This document shows, in pieces, positions 37,829-48,495 of a stretch of DNA of 64,000 nt. Under the pieces are notes generated by a model. That model was not told the origin of the DNA and made no database searches. It saw only the letters and a program-made list of their open reading frames with translations. The position numbers were made by a program, and so were the translations under genes. Location of the stretch: NCBI GenBank assembly GCA_019058275.1, contig JAHLVW010000066.1, positions 230,781 through 294,780 on the forward strand. The letters run 5' to 3'. The first letter of the stretch is position 1. Each line of letters begins with the position of its first letter. Origin of the DNA: Candidatus Heimdallarchaeota archaeon. GTDB taxonomy: Archaea; Asgardarchaeota; Heimdallarchaeia; JABLTI01.

Positions 37829-40552
37829 TTACATAATCACCTTTTTTAATTGTTTAATAGTTAAAAGGTGAGTTACTGCAAGTGTTGCAATATTCACAAT
37901 TATGAATAATAAAATGAATAATCCCAATTGCATGAATAACTGATAATTTGTTGCTAGTAACAAACTAGGAAAATCATATCGAATATAGATAAATGCTACT
38001 ACAAGACCAGATAATAAACCAAAAAGGATACTGGAGCTATGGTTAATCATAATTCTTCTACTAGTATCCATTATAATCTTCTTGCTAGAATATCCTCTAG
38101 ATACTATTCTCTTCAGAGAAGGACTTATTTCTTTCAAAAATGAATAATTGAGAACAATAATTAACATAGGAAGTATTAAACATAAAAGAATAGCATCAAA
38201 AACAATGAAATATGTTTCAGCTTTGGTATCTGGTCTTACGAGGTAATTACCAACATCATCTAAAATTATTGTATTAAGATTTTCTTCAATATCAAAAAAT
38301 ATTCTGACCTTATCCACAATTACTTCTATTTCCTCTTCTCGTTCTATTTTTTCAAGAGATGGATCTATATTCAAATCAAGGGTTAATTCATCAACCATGA
38401 AATTCCCATCTAAATTACTATACACAAGCTCTAACAAAGAGAAATCAGCATAGATATAATTCATAGCATATGACTTAAATCCAATTCCTATTGGTAATGT
38501 GTCAACAATACCTATAATTGTTACGTTATTAATTCGATAAGATCTTTCATCTATATCATCCCAATATGGAGGTAATGAAAGATCGATTGAAATCGTATCA
38601 CCTTCTCTTAAACCAGATATTTCAGCTACTTCCTGGTTTATAATGATTGAATTTGTAGATAATTGAGATACATCCTCATTTGTATGATTATTTCCAACAT
38701 ATCCTATAAAATAATTCCATGAAACATCATAGCTTGAAAGTAAAGACGAATTTAATACAATAATTGTTGAAGTAATTGATTTATCATTTGCAACAAAAGA
38801 GACAGAACTACCTGAATTTGGAAAAACCAAATCGATTTCAGAGATGCTTTTAGGCAGATCGGGAATTTTACTGTAATTAAAGCCGGATGGAGGATTGAAA
38901 AGCTTCACATCCCAACCTATTTCTGTACTTTCAATATATGATCTTGTATAATTTATGTCTGATATCTTAAAAAACAGCAAAAATGTCAACAGAATACACA
39001 AACCAAAAGTAATAATACGTTGTTGTGCTATCTTCATCTTTAGCTTGTTTTTAAATAGCTTCTGAAACAAAGTTTCAAAATTAAAAATATCCTCATTTTT
39101 CTTTTTATTATTATATGATAAAAATGAATGCCCTAGAAGAGCAATAGAGATGGCTATGATGCTAAAAATATTTATCACTAACCTAATTGATCCTCTTAGT
39201 AATGGAAACCAGAATAAAGGTTCAAATATAGAATATAATTGTAGAAACAAAGCAATTAATAATATGATTAATGTAATTGTAATATTAAAGGAAATTTTTC
39301 TATTCTTTATTCGATGTTCATCCTGTTCTTCAAAAACAGTCTCAACTTCATTAACAGATAAAATACTCTTATGTTTGATTGAAAATCTAATAAATTTACT
39401 TATAGAAATAATAACGAATACAAGCATATTAGACATAAAAAGTGATAATAAAATAAAATATGGTAAATTAAACGCAAGAATAATTATGCTAAATAACAAT
39501 TGAGCAATAACAACCATTAGAAGATCAGTTATAATTTCAGAGATAATAAGGATAAATATTGTACGTTTCAGAGATAATCCTCTTGTCCATAAGAATTTAC
39601 CTTTCTTCTTAAGCAAATTATACATCCCTAAATCCACTGAAAAAATAATAATGATTACAATAATAATATTAGGTAATGAAAGAATCTGGATTGAATTAAT
39701 TTCATAGCCAATATCTGTTTTGATTGAATTTATTGCTGCTTGTAGATATGAACGAAAATGTATATAATCGCTTGTAAATCCTCCCTCTAAACAGTCTAAG
39801 AAAATCGAGAGCTCTTCTTCCTGTATTATTTGTTCAATCTTGTTAATAGATAATTGACTAAGATAATCATCATCAAATTGGACTAAAATGAATGCACTAA
39901 TAGCTAATGAATTTCTTGGAAATTTCATAATAATATTATTTAATGTTGTAAAATTAACACATAGAAATTGATCAAAATCATAGTAGAGGGGAGGTGTCAT
40001 ATCATATCGATGTAAAATGAATACTAAAGTATGATAATTGTCATCATATGAGAAGTTTTGAAAATCATTAATAAACAAACTGTAATTAGCAGAATTTGGA
40101 TCTTCTGGCAGAGATAAATTAATTGTACTATACGCTAAATCTTGTGAGCTTATTATTTTTCTATTTGGATAACCAAGAAAATCAAATAATGAATCAGTTA
40201 AACCAAAGATTGGTAAATGTATTGTTTGATTGTTTATTGTTGCATTTAAGCTTACTATTATACCATACTCTGTACGGGCTTCTTCAACATTTATACTTTC
40301 AAGAGTTTGGTTTATTGAAGTAAACTCAGTATTATTTAGTGATTGGTAACCAATGGTCGTATAACTATCAGTATCAATTCTTGCTAATTCTTCATTAAGA
40401 GCTAAAGTATAGGGGGTAGCTGTAGCAACAATTGTGATCCCTAGTAACCCTAACACAATCAGAAAAACTAATGCTGATGTTAAAACAGTTTTGAAATTTC
40501 GTTTGTAAAATAGTTTAAATAATTTGAATCTACACATTAATTTTTCATCCAT
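37829..40552 (-). CDS. FtsX/MacB-like ABC permease
   Basis: Two large extracellular domains, WTRGLS and VSRGYS motifs, many TM helices. Confidence 0.75.
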   Translation of the reverse strand: MDEKLMCRFKLFKLFYKRNFKTVLTSALVFLIVLGLLGITIVATATPYTLALNEELARIDTDSYTTIGYQSLNNTEFTSINQTLESINVEEARTEYGIIVSLNATINNQTIHLPIFGLTDSLFDFLGYPNRKIISSQDLAYSTINLSLPEDPNSANYSLFINDFQNFSYDDNYHTLVFILHRYDMTPPLYYDFDQFLCVNFTTLNNIIMKFPRNSLAISAFILVQFDDDYLSQLSINKIEQIIQEEELSIFLDCLEGGFTSDYIHFRSYLQAAINSIKTDIGYEINSIQILSLPNIIIVIIIIFSVDLGMYNLLKKKGKFLWTRGLSLKRTIFILIISEIITDLLMVVIAQLLFSIIILAFNLPYFILLSLFMSNMLVFVIISISKFIRFSIKHKSILSVNEVETVFEEQDEHRIKNRKISFNITITLIILLIALFLQLYSIFEPLFWFPLLRGSIRLVINIFSIIAISIALLGHSFLSYNNKKKNEDIFNFETLFQKLFKNKLKMKIAQQRIITFGLCILLTFLLFFKISDINYTRSYIESTEIGWDVKLFNPPSGFNYSKIPDLPKSISEIDLVFPNSGSSVSFVANDKSITSTIIVLNSSLLSSYDVSWNYFIGYVGNNHTNEDVSQLSTNSIIINQEVAEISGLREGDTISIDLSLPPYWDDIDERSYRINNVTIIGIVDTLPIGIGFKSYAMNYIYADFSLLELVYSNLDGNFMVDELTLDLNIDPSLEKIEREEEIEVIVDKVRIFFDIEENLNTIILDDVGNYLVRPDTKAETYFIVFDAILLCLILPMLIIVLNYSFLKEISPSLKRIVSRGYSSKKIIMDTSRRIMINHSSSILFGLLSGLVVAFIYIRYDFPSLLLATNYQLFMQLGLFILLFIIVNIATLAVTHLLTIKQLKKVIM

Positions 40553-43965: not shown

Positions 43966-45264
43966 TTGGGAGTTTCTATGAAGAGTGGTAAAAGGAAAAT
44001 TAGTAAGAAAAGGTTAATTCTAATTATATTCTTAATTATTACTTTAATGGAATTAAACCTATCAATGGGATTAGGTTATAAAGTGCATAATCATGATTTT
44101 GAAACTAATAATATGAGTGTTCCATCATGGGGATATAATGATATTAAAATTTCAAATGATTTAGCATTTCTTTCTATTCCACATTCATTTTATGCCAATG
44201 TATTTCCATGGGTTAACTCATTAGAATTGTGGAGCTTAAAAAATTCAAAAAGACCAGTTTTTTTAGATAGTATTTCTTTCAATTTGAGTTTTCCCCATTT
44301 TAGTGGGGCAAATCTGTTCGTTTACAATGATTACATTTTTTATCCTATATGTTTTGATTATGGATCAAGTGCTATAGCAGGTTTCAAAATAATTAGATGT
44401 AATGAAAATTCACTTCAAGAAGTTGGTAGTTTTCAACTAAATAATTCATATTGGATGTCGGGTGATAAAATAATAGTTGAAAATAATATAGCTTATTTTG
44501 TAGCAACTAAAGAAACCTTCAGTTATCTCATGCCCATTAGTATAATCAATTTATCAGCACCTTTCAGTATTAGCTTGTATAATACTACAGGTTACATTCA
44601 CTCAATAATAAAAGATGGAAATATTATCTATTTACTCAAATCCCTAAACTATGAAACAACATTTATTGAAATTATAAATGTTCAAGATATTTTAAATCCA
44701 TATCTAGTTAGTAGTTATCCATTAAATATATCGTATCCTATTAAATTCATAAAAAAAGGCTTACACTTTTTTATTTTAGGAAGAAATGAAATGTCTGTTT
44801 TTAATTTAGATTTAAACTCCACACAATTATTACTTGAATATGGTGAAGATATGAGTTTTTTTAGAGATTTATTGCTAGACAAAAATTTACTTTATTGCGT
44901 GAATCGGGATGAACTTTTCATCTATAATATAACCGAAATAAATGATTTTAGATTGCTAGGCAATTGCTTGAATAGAAAGCAAGGATATGGATTTTATCAT
45001 AAAATGGAGAAGAGAAATGACTATTTGTATATTATTAGAATATCCGAAAAAGAGGAACGATTTTTCTTTGTATTTGATTGTTCAAATCCAAACAATCCTA
45101 GAAAGATATACCCACTAGGTTATGTTTTTCCTGATTTCTGGTTATATGTCGGATGGTTTTCCATTTATTACTCAATTATACTAGCAGGTATAACCACATT
45201 GATTGTGGTGTTTTCTCCATTGATTCGAAGGAGATATAAGACAAAAAAGGAAAACATTAAGTGA
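43966..45264 (+). CDS. LVIVD-like beta-propeller surface protein with C-terminal TM
   Basis: Signal/TM; IINVQDILNP, IYNITE and VFDCSNPNNP repeats; TM followed by RRR. Confidence 0.75.
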   Translation: MGVSMKSGKRKISKKRLILIIFLIITLMELNLSMGLGYKVHNHDFETNNMSVPSWGYNDIKISNDLAFLSIPHSFYANVFPWVNSLELWSLKNSKRPVFLDSISFNLSFPHFSGANLFVYNDYIFYPICFDYGSSAIAGFKIIRCNENSLQEVGSFQLNNSYWMSGDKIIVENNIAYFVATKETFSYLMPISIINLSAPFSISLYNTTGYIHSIIKDGNIIYLLKSLNYETTFIEIINVQDILNPYLVSSYPLNISYPIKFIKKGLHFFILGRNEMSVFNLDLNSTQLLLEYGEDMSFFRDLLLDKNLLYCVNRDELFIYNITEINDFRLLGNCLNRKQGYGFYHKMEKRNDYLYIIRISEKEERFFFVFDCSNPNNPRKIYPLGYVFPDFWLYVGWFSIYYSIILAGITTLIVVFSPLIRRRYKTKKENIK

Positions 45265-45394: not shown

Positions 45395-45778
45395 GTGCCG
45401 GTAATGATAAACAAGAAGAGTTTACATTCTACTATTAACCTAAATATCTCTGAGAATCACAACCTTCTTTATTACAATATCCCTAAAGAAATTGTTCAAA
45501 AATTAGATCTAAATGATAAAGATCTTTTAGAGTACGACATTCGAGAGGATAATTTCTTCGTTCGAAAGAAAGGCTCTCAATCTTTGCCTGTGAATACAAA
45601 TAACAATATCTTTTCAGGATTACTAGTTGAACGGAATATAACACGAAATAATACCGTCCTAAGAACAAATTTACCCAAAGAGGTTGCTCAACCTTTGATT
45701 ATAGCTAAGGGCGATCAAGTTGAGATAACCATCGAGGGGAAGGTCATTGTAGGCCGAAAAATAAGCTCAAAAGAATAA
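45395..45778 (+). CDS. Tandem AbrB/MazE/SpoVT-domain DNA-binding protein
   Basis: Two swapped-hairpin units: NIPKEIVQKLDLNDKDLLEYDI and NLPKEVAQPLIIAKGDQVEITI. Confidence 0.8.
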   Translation: MPVMINKKSLHSTINLNISENHNLLYYNIPKEIVQKLDLNDKDLLEYDIREDNFFVRKKGSQSLPVNTNNNIFSGLLVERNITRNNTVLRTNLPKEVAQPLIIAKGDQVEITIEGKVIVGRKISSKE

Positions 45779-45795: not shown

Positions 45796-48495
45796 TTGCG
45801 TGTAAGAGAACGAATTATGGTGACATTCATCGTATTACTCATTCTTCCGCCAATCATTATGATTACGGTTTCAAGTGTACGAATAAGTCAAATTTCGCGG
45901 GAGAATGCAACCGATTCTTCTGTAGCCTTACTAGCTGAAGAATTAGAACATCTTCAACGGTTGTCTTCAGATGAATCGCAAAAAATCAACGAGCTATTCG
46001 ATCAGATAGTTGCAGAAGTGACTATACTCGATAGCTATACGGAAGATTTGTTTGATAACAAAATTCCGGTAACACCATATCAATCCTATTGGTGGGATGA
46101 ACAAGAAGAAAAGATTGAAACACTTCGTGATATTCCTGGGATACATGACAACGATGATTATGAATCGCGTATTTCATTTGATGCTAGTTGTTATTATATA
46201 CCAAGGGATAAGATTGCTACTGCATTAGGTGGAGATCCCTTTAATTGGACACCTGACCTTCAATACTTGCTTGATATTTCATCCAATATGGATATTGCTT
46301 TTAAGAACATGCATGAAGCAAATGAAAATTACATTTGGATTTATGGTGCTTTTGCAGATCCTACATTTTCACTCTTTAGAAACTATCCTTATGATTCTAT
46401 GGAGTGGACACAATATGACGAAAACGATAATCCAGTTTCACCAGAGGATGATTGGGATCCACTAGAGTTTGATTGGTACACAAACGCTGCTAGTATAACT
46501 GATAATAGTACTGCATTTACTTCACCTTATTTCGATCCAATTGGTTTAATTATCTCAGTTGGTAGACCTATTAGATTCGAAAATGATACCCTCATAGGTG
46601 TTGTTAGTGTAGATATCACTATTGAAACAATGCAACAAAGTATCTTGAATCTAGATGTCAGTGAGAATGGTTATGCTTTCCTAATTGATGCGAATGGAGA
46701 CACAATTACTCATCCAGATCTTATAGATGAAGCTATTGACATCATGGATTTGGAAATGACTGGTGCATCATCTTTGGAAAGAAATGCTTTTGAGGACATC
46801 ATTGATAACATGATAACTGGACAATCAGAATTACAAACCTTCACAAAGAGTGGAGATTTGTGGTATATCTCATATAGTCCAATCAGCACAACAGGTTATT
46901 CATTAGCATTAATTGTTCCAGAAATGGATATCTTAGCACCTATTAATCAACTTAGAGATGACATACTTGCCAGAAGTCGAAACAATATTTTGATTTCAGT
47001 TGGTTTGCTTCTATTAGCCTTAGTTCTTATTGTATTTGTATCATTTAGTGTCTCAAAGCGAACTGTTGAACCAATTCAAGATTTCATAGACTTTTCTGAA
47101 AGAGTTGGAAAAGGAGATCTCTCAAGAGACTTGGATGAGGACGAAATAATCCCGAGGGAGATTCAGGGATTACATGAAGCGTTAGATGGGTTACTTACAG
47201 CTTTACGATTCGGTAATACTGATTATTATGAAGGAAATCTGGATCTTGCGTTTAACAATTACCTAAAAGCATTGAAGCTATTTGAAACAACCAAAGACCA
47301 AATAGGTATTGGTGTTTGTCTTAACAATCTCGGTAATGTTTATCGAGAATGGGGCGACTTACCAAAAGCAAAAGAGTTCTATTCAAAAGCAATTGCTGTT
47401 GCTGAAAATCTTCAAGACAACATTGGTCTTGCTTCGAGATATAACAACTATGGTTTAATTCTCTTAGACAGTGGAGAATTAGATGAAGCTCAGAAATACG
47501 TTGATAGAGCTTTGAAAATAAATGAAGATCTTGGTAAAATAAGAGGTCGAGTTCTTTGTTTGAATAATCTTGGTTTGATTCATTTCAAATTAGGTTCAGT
47601 CAAATTAGCATTCCAATATTACCAAGATGCAATAAAGCTAGCAAAAGAAGATGATTTTGTTAGAGGTGTTGCTCACAGTCTGCTTAACTTAGCGGTATTT
47701 TATCTCGAGCAATATGATGTTCACAGCTCAAAAACACACATGCAAGAAGCTTTAGAGAATGCTCGTATGGTAAATGATGTTTTACTTGAAGAAGAAATTC
47801 TAGAACGATTGAAGCTTGTTGAGCGTGATTTAGGAGACGACGCTAGTCAAGAGCAAATTAGACAAACACTAGAAGCACTAAGAGGTAAGGGAACTCCACA
47901 GAAAAGCGTTCTATATGTTTTGGATTACAGCGGTTCAATGAGCGGATCACGTAGTAGAGCATCTGTCAGAGGTTCACTTGATCTATTTAACACTGCAATA
48001 GATGATAGGGATACTGTTGGAATTATCACTTTCCATACAATAAGTCATATGATTCTGAAACCAACACAAGTAAGACGTAATCGAACAATGATTACGAATT
48101 CTTTGAAACGTCTAACCAGACCAAACGGTAATACAGCAATGTGGGATGCATTAGCAGATGCTATCGCTACTCTAGGTACCGTTGGAGGAACTCAGAAATG
48201 GCTAGTACTTCTAACAGATGGAGAAGACAACTCAAGTAGTAAATCAGCAAACGATATCAAGCATTTAATCAGGAAGTTGAAATACAATTTGTACATGGTA
48301 GTAATTAGTGTGGGTGAAATTGGTTCAGATGAAGCAATTTTAGTTGAATTCTGCGACACAGTCAATGGCACATTCATCAAAGTTGATGACTCTCGAAGTG
48401 TCCATAAACAAATCGAGAAAGCTTTCAAGACTGTGGGTCAATTGATGTCCCAGGCTCAGGTATCAGTAGAGGGTCTGGTATTGGATGATTTGTGA
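45796..48495 (+). CDS. Membrane receptor: TM-dCache-TM-HAMP-TPR-vWA
   Basis: TM1; dCache (FRNYP, DWY, FTSPYFD, GVVSVD, GYAFLID..HP); TM2; HAMP (EPI...VGKGDL...EI..L); about five 40-aa TPRs (LNNLG); vWA with MIDAS DYSGS, GNT, LTDGED. Confidence 0.88.
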   Translation: MRVRERIMVTFIVLLILPPIIMITVSSVRISQISRENATDSSVALLAEELEHLQRLSSDESQKINELFDQIVAEVTILDSYTEDLFDNKIPVTPYQSYWWDEQEEKIETLRDIPGIHDNDDYESRISFDASCYYIPRDKIATALGGDPFNWTPDLQYLLDISSNMDIAFKNMHEANENYIWIYGAFADPTFSLFRNYPYDSMEWTQYDENDNPVSPEDDWDPLEFDWYTNAASITDNSTAFTSPYFDPIGLIISVGRPIRFENDTLIGVVSVDITIETMQQSILNLDVSENGYAFLIDANGDTITHPDLIDEAIDIMDLEMTGASSLERNAFEDIIDNMITGQSELQTFTKSGDLWYISYSPISTTGYSLALIVPEMDILAPINQLRDDILARSRNNILISVGLLLLALVLIVFVSFSVSKRTVEPIQDFIDFSERVGKGDLSRDLDEDEIIPREIQGLHEALDGLLTALRFGNTDYYEGNLDLAFNNYLKALKLFETTKDQIGIGVCLNNLGNVYREWGDLPKAKEFYSKAIAVAENLQDNIGLASRYNNYGLILLDSGELDEAQKYVDRALKINEDLGKIRGRVLCLNNLGLIHFKLGSVKLAFQYYQDAIKLAKEDDFVRGVAHSLLNLAVFYLEQYDVHSSKTHMQEALENARMVNDVLLEEEILERLKLVERDLGDDASQEQIRQTLEALRGKGTPQKSVLYVLDYSGSMSGSRSRASVRGSLDLFNTAIDDRDTVGIITFHTISHMILKPTQVRRNRTMITNSLKRLTRPNGNTAMWDALADAIATLGTVGGTQKWLVLLTDGEDNSSSKSANDIKHLIRKLKYNLYMVVISVGEIGSDEAILVEFCDTVNGTFIKVDDSRSVHKQIEKAFKTVGQLMSQAQVSVEGLVLDDL

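Follow-up and report, generated by a model that had tools for sequence, protein, structure and literature searches.

The question raised by the locus described here is whether a membrane receptor of an archaeon may be a eukaryotic signature protein that has so far gone unlisted. The receptor gene (R1) lies at positions 45796–48495 of a 64,000-nucleotide stretch of Candidatus Heimdallarchaeota archaeon DNA (assembly GCA_019058275.1, contig JAHLVW010000066.1, positions 230,781 to 294,780 of the forward strand; hereafter the window), and is followed by a second receptor gene (R2). An initial annotation, made from the sequence alone, had compared R1 with the alpha2delta/CACHD1 channel subunits of eukaryotes and with Cache-TPR-vWA proteins of protists. 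The reading considered here as reasonably probable is that R1 is a two-pass membrane receptor without an internal enzyme, whose family occurs in Asgard archaea, a few protists and giant viruses, the last two nested within the Asgard diversity, and that it would pair with R2, sense an amine and act by protein docking. On the sequence comparisons the family fits, as a candidate, what a eukaryotic signature protein would show, be it inherited or gained very early. It is apparently undescribed, as no earlier account of a Cache-TPR-vWA receptor in Asgard archaea, protists or giant viruses was found in the literature searched.

The following features were assigned to R1 (TM, transmembrane).
45796..48495, + strand: R1 receptor gene, 899 aa (open reading frame, translation and Pfam)
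45814..45870, + strand: TM1, residues 7–25, hydropathy score 2.79, located in the R2 interface of the complex model
45883..46980, + strand: extracellular dCache_1 sensor, residues ~30–395
46453..46479, + strand: ligand-pocket motif WDPLEFDWY (alignment of 180 R1/R2 ectodomains; alignment with Mlp24)
46987..47043, + strand: TM2, residues 398–416, hydropathy score 3.13, located in the interface of the complex model
47053..47199, + strand: HAMP-like linker, residues ~420–468 (weak NCBIfam matches)
47200..47865, + strand: TPR array, residues 469–690 (Pfam TPR_12, TPR_1, TPR_2, TPR_10)
47893..48492, + strand: cytoplasmic vWA domain, residues 700–899 (Pfam VWA, residues 706–871, 1.5e-11)

The R1 start codon is TTG, with GGAG 9 nt upstream of it, and a database record holds an identical protein of 899 aa. 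The order of domains is TM, dCache_1, TM, HAMP-like linker, about five TPRs and vWA, and no kinase, cyclase, methyl-accepting chemotaxis protein (MCP) or phosphatase domain was found in the architecture of the 899-aa protein. Residues 226–371 matched the Pfam profile dCache_1 (PF02743) above threshold (2.7e-17, 63.6 bits, cutoff 45), and residues 170–281 matched MCP-like_PDC_1 (2e-10, 41.5 bits, cutoff 27). The ectodomain has the double PDC fold and the long N-terminal helix of dCache_1 domains, is sited between two TM helices, and carries about 90 extra residues ahead of the distal module. From the two TM helices it follows that the Cache domain would lie outside and the TPR-vWA part inside the cell, and in agreement with the cytoplasmic vWA domain claimed earlier, this domain was found behind TM2 and the TPRs. 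Residues 390–470 matched the TM2-HAMP parts of sensor kinases and MCPs only weakly (NCBIfam, 7e-4 to 0.016). TPR_12 and other TPR profiles matched residues 468–620 (Pfam, 8e-26), and the array opens with a family-wide junction, ALRFGN..Y..GNL..A..NY..AL.LF....N.RG.GVC.NN.GN.Y. The metal ion-dependent adhesion site (MIDAS) of the vWA domain is complete (D710-Y-S712-G-S714, T780, D808); D710, S712, T780 and D808 were invariant in 70 family members, and likewise in a vWA-only alignment, and S714 was at least 90% conserved. All the strings quoted in the initial annotation were found verbatim in the two translations: MDIAFKNMHEANENYIWIYGAF (165–186), FRNYP (194–198) and DWY, within WDPLEFDWY (220–228), in the R1 ectodomain; ALRFGNTDYYEGN (469–481), ALKLF (492–496) and GIGVCLNNLGNVY (504–516) at the R1 junction; and MDHVFQYIHNNAPEFRWLYIAF (167–188), INYP (198–201) and DWY (225–227) in R2.

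An exhaustive HMMER search with R1 over 1.8 billion representative proteins, whose results were drawn from the best 150 matches, gave many relatives aligned end to end in one stretch at 26–36% identity. Eukaryotic full-length relatives were recovered from EukProt for Andalucia godoyi (ANDGO_00932, 930 aa), Trimastix marina (900 aa) and Platysulcus tardus (1015 aa); the E-values for the eukaryotic full-length relatives were 2.4e-77, 9e-76 and 3.8e-66, which are far beyond chance. The nearest relatives of R1 are those of Asgard archaea, but full-length homologues are not confined to bacteria and archaea, nor are the eukaryotic matches limited to generic TPR/vWA similarity. All three proteins showed the TM-dCache-TM-TPR-vWA order, with two TM helices, an ectodomain bearing a Cys pair, and an intact MIDAS. 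The passage from linker to TPR is near letter-for-letter the same in Asgard, protist and giant-virus members, so that the comparison with protist Cache-TPR-vWA proteins prompted by the R1 junction was well founded. The comparison with ciliates held in part: the Tetrahymena thermophila protein XP_001016264.2, encoded on a 1.08-Mb scaffold, is a Cache-TM-TPR relative (Prob 99.5, E 1.4e-22 over 770 columns against the profile of non-Asgard members) but lacks the vWA domain; like the other protist proteins it has the two-TM topology, two ectodomain cysteines and YDPRCRxWY. The four named eukaryotes belong to Discoba (Andalucia), Metamonada (Trimastix), Stramenopila (Platysulcus) and Alveolata (Tetrahymena), the full-length homologues being spread over the first three of these supergroups, and for Andalucia and Tetrahymena the entries derive from assembled genomes, as gene models. 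Of two profile searches seeded with virus and protist members, the first gave Tetrahymena and the second gave no new eukaryotes, both being saturated by TPR words. In the ESM Atlas the top cluster for the Andalucia protein was a Thorarchaeota family (0.99); a chytrid Cache-HAMP cluster at 0.81 is a lead only.

Family members were also found on three IMG/VR GVMAG contigs, and a UniRef relative labelled "viral metagenome" is identical to one on such a contig. One giant-virus member lies on a 569-kb contig together with genes for a poxvirus P4B core protein, RFC, XRN, a protein kinase and ubiquitins, and another on a contig with ATG8, NFACT and ankyrin (Ank) genes. On the 569-kb contig (L013, 7165–9541) two ubiquitin-family genes immediately adjoin the viral R2 gene, itself divergent from R1. 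The metagenomic relatives of the Andalucia protein lie on gene-sparse, giant-virus-like contigs rich in ORFans. A Cys pair (YTC...YDPRCRxWY) is near-invariant in the protist and giant-virus ectodomains and absent from Asgard members; it fits a disulfide made in a eukaryotic secretory pathway.

Among prokaryotes the family appears to be limited to Asgard archaea. When 5.8 billion proteins were searched by word index, about 67 full-length clusters with 30–79% identity to R1 were obtained, all with Asgard names except one labelled "Zixibacteria" (74% identity). Below these clusters comes a step in E-value, 1e-84 being followed by 4e-29, at which partial matches to bacterial TPR or Cache-HAMP regions begin; the bacterial matches were to the Cache-HAMP half only, at no more than 26% identity and over no more than 48% of R1. 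A scan of one genome per species for 185,579 prokaryote species, seeded by one peptide pattern, gave 99 relatives, and the 80 of the 99 that were listed all came from Asgard-type metagenome-assembled or other genomes (Heimdall, Hod, Thor, Loki including Lokiarchaeum ossiferum, Hermod and Sigyn), without a bacterium among them. Absence from bacteria and from non-Asgard archaea, as expected of a eukaryotic signature protein, was thus found among the relatives listed. The odd labels were one "Bathyarchaeia" genome, one "Methanobacteriota" genome and the "Zixibacteria" protein. The "Zixibacteria" (P0016) and "Bathyarchaeia" (L018, 73%) sequences are 73–74% identical to R1; because of this identity, and for L018 also because of its R1-R2-decarboxylase order, they seem to be mis-binned or mislabelled Asgard contigs, and the odd labels are probably of this kind throughout. 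In a census of Asgard genomes at least 70% complete, 101 of 301 matched the family at 1e-60 or below, in 9 of 30 families and in seven of the eight genomes of the source genus.

The ancestry of the eukaryotic and viral members was approached with trees whose supports are Shimodaira–Hasegawa-like approximate likelihood ratio values (SH-aLRT) from short searches. A full-length tree of 85 rows was split, with support of 100, into an all-Asgard side and a side holding the viral-context rows and the protists. Since R2, found in Asgard archaea and in viruses alike, is paralogous to R1's front half, R1 and R2 can root each other, and R2-rooted trees of the Cache-HAMP half (57–64 rows) were built under LG+G4 and LG+C20+F+G4. 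With 57 rows the separation of R1 from R2 received 100; with the initial 64 rows this branch was weak (43) until the three loci that mix R1 and R2 (L075, L085, L087) were removed. In the R2-rooted tree the Loki-type and Hermod/Sigyn-type paralogues branch first. Eukaryotes and viruses (nucleocytoplasmic large DNA viruses, NCLDV) form a clade (96), which joins Heimdallarchaeota-labelled paralogues (93 under LG+G4, 86 under LG+C20+F+G4), and this set lies within the clade of decarboxylase-linked orthologues (97 and 94, respectively). Viral R2 is likewise nested within Asgard R2. An approximately unbiased (AU) test rejected a monophyletic Asgard R1 (delta lnL 28.8, p 0.0085). The phylogeny that the initial annotation had called for thus places the eukaryotes within Asgard archaea in a rooted tree, as expected of a eukaryotic signature protein, with moderate support given by SH-aLRT only. 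On these trees the eukaryote/virus branch arises, with moderate support, from within the Asgard diversity, beside a Heimdallarchaeota subgroup. Vertical descent and early or virus-borne transfer both fit this tree; a coincidence of generic domains does not.

The partner gene was delimited as follows.
48508..49968, + strand: R2, output-less partner of 486 aa, TM-dCache_1-TM-HAMP (translation and Pfam)

R2 begins 12 bp downstream of R1, and the source genome has one copy of each. Its HAMP domain scored below threshold (Pfam, 1.8e-4, 22.2 bits, cutoff 25), and Pfam gave no domain behind it. R2 adjoins R1 in all of the 70 assessable Asgard loci and in three of the four giant-virus loci, and the two are also adjacent on an Andalucia-like contig (L097). 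A complex model of R1 (residues 1–470) with R2 reached an ipSAE of 0.80 in three runs, the best control giving 0.00; on calibration, 58 of 80 solved complexes but only 2 of 110 mismatched pairs attained this value. Contacts agreed to at least 93% and the partner pLDDT was at least 79. The modelled interface is parallel and is made by TM1, the N-terminal helix, TM2 and HAMP, the canonical kind for dCache_1 sensors. In a relative with 46% identity the R2 partner (L008:8752–10764) has 670 aa and ends in HEAT repeats, which hints at an R2 bearing its own docking arm; the gene after it (L008:10872–11471) encodes a small Ras/Roc-type GTPase.

The ligand pocket was considered together with the gene behind R2.
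49993..51801, + strand: SpeA-like arginine decarboxylase, dependent on pyridoxal phosphate (PLP), 602 aa (Pfam Orn_Arg_deC_N; NCBIfam)

This protein matched the NCBIfam biosynthetic arginine decarboxylase over its full length at 1.3e-94, below the cutoff, and in 45 of 56 assessable Asgard loci a SpeA-like decarboxylase lies no more than 2.6 kb from R1. The amino-acid motif of dCache_1AA domains consists of Y121, R126, W128, Y129, Y144 and D173 in the numbering of PctA (PMC8915833). WDPLEFDWY of R1 is the equivalent of YDPRxRPWY (Y121 to Y129 of PctA), and R1 departs from the motif by Phe (F225) in place of R126 and Trp in place of Y121, W128, Y129, Y144 and D173 being kept. In R2 the motif reads YEASLEDWY, with Glu (E224) at the R126 position. 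In the decarboxylase-linked R1 sequences (53) and in all decarboxylase-linked R2 sequences the R126 position was occupied by E, D, Q, N, F or Y, an Arg being seen in none of them; D173 was conserved throughout and Y144 in nearly all (a few R1 have Phe or no aligned residue there). YDPRxRxWY is retained in paralogues without the decarboxylase (Loki and Heimdall types), in protists and in all viral R1, so that loss of the Arg falls in exactly the decarboxylase-linked loci. Most members of the R1 family carry the motif of dCache_1 amino-acid sensors, whereas R1 itself is devoid of their carboxylate-binding Arg. Since the carboxylate-binding Arg is replaced and the residues for the amino group are kept, an amine or polyamine would be a likelier ligand than an amino acid. 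The solved domain 3lib, an amine-binding dCache_1AM domain (PMC10104139), was the best solved match of R1 alone (5.2e-12); 3li8, like 3lib a sensor of a Methanosarcina kinase (5e-12), and PctA/B were also among the best. The amine motif of dCache_1AM includes a small pocket insertion and specific aromatic residues (PMC10104139).

Other genes around the receptors were the following.
45395..45778, + strand: two-domain AbrB/MazE-type DNA-binding protein, 127 aa (Pfam MazE_antitoxin, 4.5e-11, two stretches)
51828..52292, − strand: PEBP-family gene, 154 aa, between the two decarboxylase genes
52434..53873, + strand: second PLP decarboxylase, LysA/ornithine-lysine decarboxylase-like, 479 aa (Pfam; NCBIfam lysA, 6.5e-58, below cutoff)

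The AbrB-type gene ends 17 bp upstream of R1 and is lineage-specific, being shared with relatives of 71% identity (L004/L005); its product may be the transcriptional end of the R1 pathway in the source lineage. The second decarboxylase is also present in L004, L017 and L018. The 432-aa open reading frame directly upstream of the AbrB gene (43966–45264, + strand) was matched by neither Pfam nor NCBIfam. A gene for a beta-propeller of about 430–490 aa, with weak IFT122/WDR19/PQQ-type matches, accompanies R1-R2 in Thor, Hermod and Heimdall loci, upstream of R1 in L002/L006/L007 and downstream of R2 in L001/L009, and is absent from the window; the open reading frame at 43966–45264 was considered as the beta-propeller of the Thor/Heimdall loci and rejected, since there is no similarity. 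Further away, at 37829–40552 (− strand), a 907-aa protein with many TM helices is encoded, without a family match beyond a weak one to DUF4220 (E 0.15); in the Heimdall genome CP070760.1 (L001) the receptor has a MacB/FtsX-type permease of about this size in its vicinity.

From these data the following working is proposed. R1 likely pairs in the membrane with R2, their adjacency being observed and the parallel dimer modelled. The distal Cache pockets would bind an amine or polyamine (agmatine, putrescine) rather than an amino acid, which the pocket residues make about as probable as the contrary. The signal of the ligand would pass through TM2 and HAMP to the TPR-vWA arm, a route suggested by the architecture. 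As the inner side of R1 has no enzyme and only TPRs and a MIDAS-bearing vWA domain, the output would be protein docking: the arm would act by binding or releasing partner proteins, the MIDAS capturing an acidic residue. The target is tentatively placed in polyamine synthesis, with the SpeA-like arginine decarboxylase or the AbrB-type regulator as candidates, and the system as a whole would then sense agmatine or a polyamine and exert feedback on polyamine synthesis.

In their topology (TM, double-PDC Cache with a long N-terminal helix, TM, HAMP) dCache_1 sensors agree with R1. They differ in their output, which is a kinase, MCP, cyclase or PP2C domain instead of TPRs and a MIDAS-type vWA domain, in an ectodomain about 100 residues shorter, and in the lack of the obligate output-less partner encoded by a paralogous gene. 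The output half of R1 also occurs on its own in Asgard 2TM-HAMP-TPR-vWA proteins that, unlike R1, have no Cache ectodomain, for which reason their signal must come from another protein. Such proteins of 505–806 aa covered R1 residues ~373–897 in the exhaustive HMMER search; those of family f14 (577–585 aa, e.g., G049, G111, G244 and G289) match only positions 382–893 of the A1 profile, which has 894 positions. With the family vWA profile the best solved match was 8s05 ("conserved protein", 8.9e-19), and 5a8j ("VWA2", ArnB-type) was matched at 9.7e-9. ArnB, of the ArnA-ArnB module of Sulfolobus, is a cytoplasmic MIDAS-type vWA protein used for regulated protein-protein binding in archaeal signalling. 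Unlike R1, ArnB-type proteins are soluble, controlled by phosphorylation, and fused neither to a membrane sensor nor to TPRs, and the genes next to R1 encode neither a kinase nor an FHA partner.

The resemblance to alpha2delta claimed in the initial annotation proved real, the pre-vWA stretch included, without being specific to R1. With a profile of 42 family ectodomains, the first dCache_1 domain of alpha2delta-1 was the top solved match (1.8e-31), CACHD1 following at 8.9e-30 (structures 8x90, 8if3/8if4, 9vlg and 8s7c); Mlp24, at 2.8e-31, was level with alpha2delta-1. In Foldseek alpha2delta-1 was again the top match (3.9e-15, TM-score on the query 0.59–0.68). R1 alone matched CACHD1 and alpha2delta-1 at 1e-8, in their post-vWA part only. 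VWA_N has been shown to form the leading part of a dCache_1 domain into which a vWA domain is inserted (PMC8915833), and alpha2delta matches the profile in separate stretches before and after its own vWA domain; the pre-vWA stretch (101–246, VWA_N) aligns with profile positions 45–198, which no solved bacterial domain covers. The Pfam profile VWA_N (PF08399), for which a check had been suggested, did not match R1 or R2, as whole proteins or excised segments, at E up to 10. It matched 13 of the 42 family ectodomains, all below threshold, the best E being 7.5e-7 (P0051, P0116 and P0124 scored 17.6–19.8 bits, cutoff 34.7).

Both alpha2delta and the R1 family join Cache with vWA. In alpha2delta the vWA domain is extracellular and inserted in the Cache domain, and a second dCache_1 domain follows, whereas in R1 the Cache domain is continuous in the structure model and the vWA domain is C-terminal and cytoplasmic, behind the TPR array. 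The family vWA profile matched alpha2delta-1 at 6e-7, below about 40 other solved vWA domains and far behind ITIH, ANTXR2 and an archaeal vWA domain. Formation of alpha2delta by rearrangement of the R1 family's own vWA domain was rejected on this result. R1 thus has no inserted vWA domain, no VWA_N match and no special vWA relatedness, and since solved bacterial sensors score level with alpha2delta, by Z as well as by profile, the comparison does not single out alpha2delta as a special sister. We read R1 and alpha2delta as cousins on the same branch of Cache sensors, R1 standing outside the alpha2delta family, and alpha2delta may be somewhat closer to the R1 family than bacterial sensors are.

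How the family came to be shared was weighed against several points that tell against the proposed reading. The relatives are patchily distributed, with four named eukaryotic species among the matches listed, two of them from transcriptomes, and with only about a third of the Asgard genomes carrying the family. The sister position to the Heimdall paralogues is moderately supported (SH-aLRT 86–93), the eukaryote and virus rows are of deviant composition, and the AU hypothesis was framed after sight of a first tree. As to the mechanism, the amine ligand is deduced from one pocket position, at which R1 has Phe and most orthologues Glu; HAMP (PF00672) is absent among the Pfam matches listed for R1, that is, below threshold; and the R1-R2 model may owe its score to likeness to solved homodimeric Cache receptors and does not separate a heterodimer from homodimers. 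A late transfer, in which a Heimdall-type archaeon gave R1-R2 to one protist or giant virus well after eukaryotes had arisen and giant viruses spread the pair to unrelated protists, we regard as rather unlikely; the family would then derive from Asgard archaea without bearing on eukaryogenesis, and the receptor mechanism would be unchanged. It would account for the four scattered eukaryotes, for the numerous and diverse giant-virus members, whose clade lies inside a eukaryote polytomy, and for the travel of R1 and R2 as adjacent genes on viral contigs, and nesting beside one Asgard subgroup is also expected from transfer. However, the named eukaryotes span four distant supergroups, the branches of their group are long (0.6–1.4 changes per site) and deep, and all eukaryote and virus members share the derived Cys pair (YTC...YDPRCRxWY), which points to one old entry; moreover, no giant virus is known to infect archaea.

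It could further be held that R1 is an ordinary prokaryotic Cache sensor in which Cache, TPR and vWA were assembled independently, its likeness to alpha2delta being the generic Cache homology known since 2000. Each R1 domain is indeed common in bacteria, the motif region is better covered by MCP-like_PDC_1 (2e-10) than by VWA_N, for which R1 gives no match, alpha2delta is equalled in score by solved bacterial sensors, and VWA_N had already been shown to be the front of dCache_1 (PMC8915833). This explanation is largely refuted, and we consider it very improbable, by the one-stretch, end-to-end alignments with protist and viral proteins (1e-54 to 1e-77 in 1.8 billion proteins), the identical domain order and topology of these relatives, the conserved linker-TPR junction, unexpected of a generic TPR, and the R1-R2 gene pair conserved in viruses; the steep fall from 1e-84 to 4e-29 towards partial bacterial matches and the lack of a bacterium among the 80 listed of the 99 relatives (185,579 species) are equally at odds with it. 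Hardly more credible is an artefact, by which the eukaryotic members would be contaminant or viral sequences misfiled under protist names in EukProt and the family would consist of Asgard archaea and giant viruses. The Trimastix and Platysulcus data are transcriptomes of non-axenic cultures, and the metagenomic relatives of the Andalucia protein lie on ORFan-rich, gene-sparse contigs; on the other hand, Andalucia and Tetrahymena are represented by gene models from genome assemblies, the latter on a 1.08-Mb scaffold, and the named eukaryotes fall outside the clade of context-verified viral sequences. The initial suggestion of an unlisted eukaryotic signature protein therefore stands as a candidate, with full-length protist relatives, the same junction and a nested tree, over a eukaryotic spread of four named species.

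What is new here is the reciprocal rooting of R1 and R2 with the AU test, the association of the pocket residue with the decarboxylase, and the profile and structure comparison with alpha2delta. It has been stated that an inserted vWA domain is present in all eukaryotic dCache_1 proteins, and that eukaryotic dCache_1 is of bacterial origin, by gene transfer around the last eukaryotic common ancestor (PMC8915833). The protist members of the R1 family, with an uninterrupted Cache domain and archaeal next of kin, bear on both statements. A wider claim, that R1-R2 was inherited by the first eukaryotes from a Heimdall-related ancestor and that eukaryotic Cache modules, including the gabapentin-binding dCache_1 of alpha2delta/CACHD1, descend from the R1-R2 lineage, is distinctly doubtful; if true, it would replace the bacterial-transfer view (PMC8915833), and R1-R2 would be the first ligand-binding transmembrane receptor traced from Asgard archaea to eukaryotes.

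Neither Cache nor vWA proteins are named in the main text of two large surveys of Asgard archaea or of a structural survey from 2026. Lists of proteins that Asgard archaea have in common with eukaryotes are dominated by parts of the cytoskeleton, trafficking, ubiquitin and information-processing systems, and hold no ligand-binding surface receptor. Mechanistically, R1 would be a receptor that signals by docking domains alone, for which an amine or polyamine ligand and control of the arginine decarboxylase are testable predictions. The giant-virus members raise the question of what a virus would gain from a host-type surface sensor, and the family would add the sensing of the surroundings to the possible archaeal legacy of eukaryotes.

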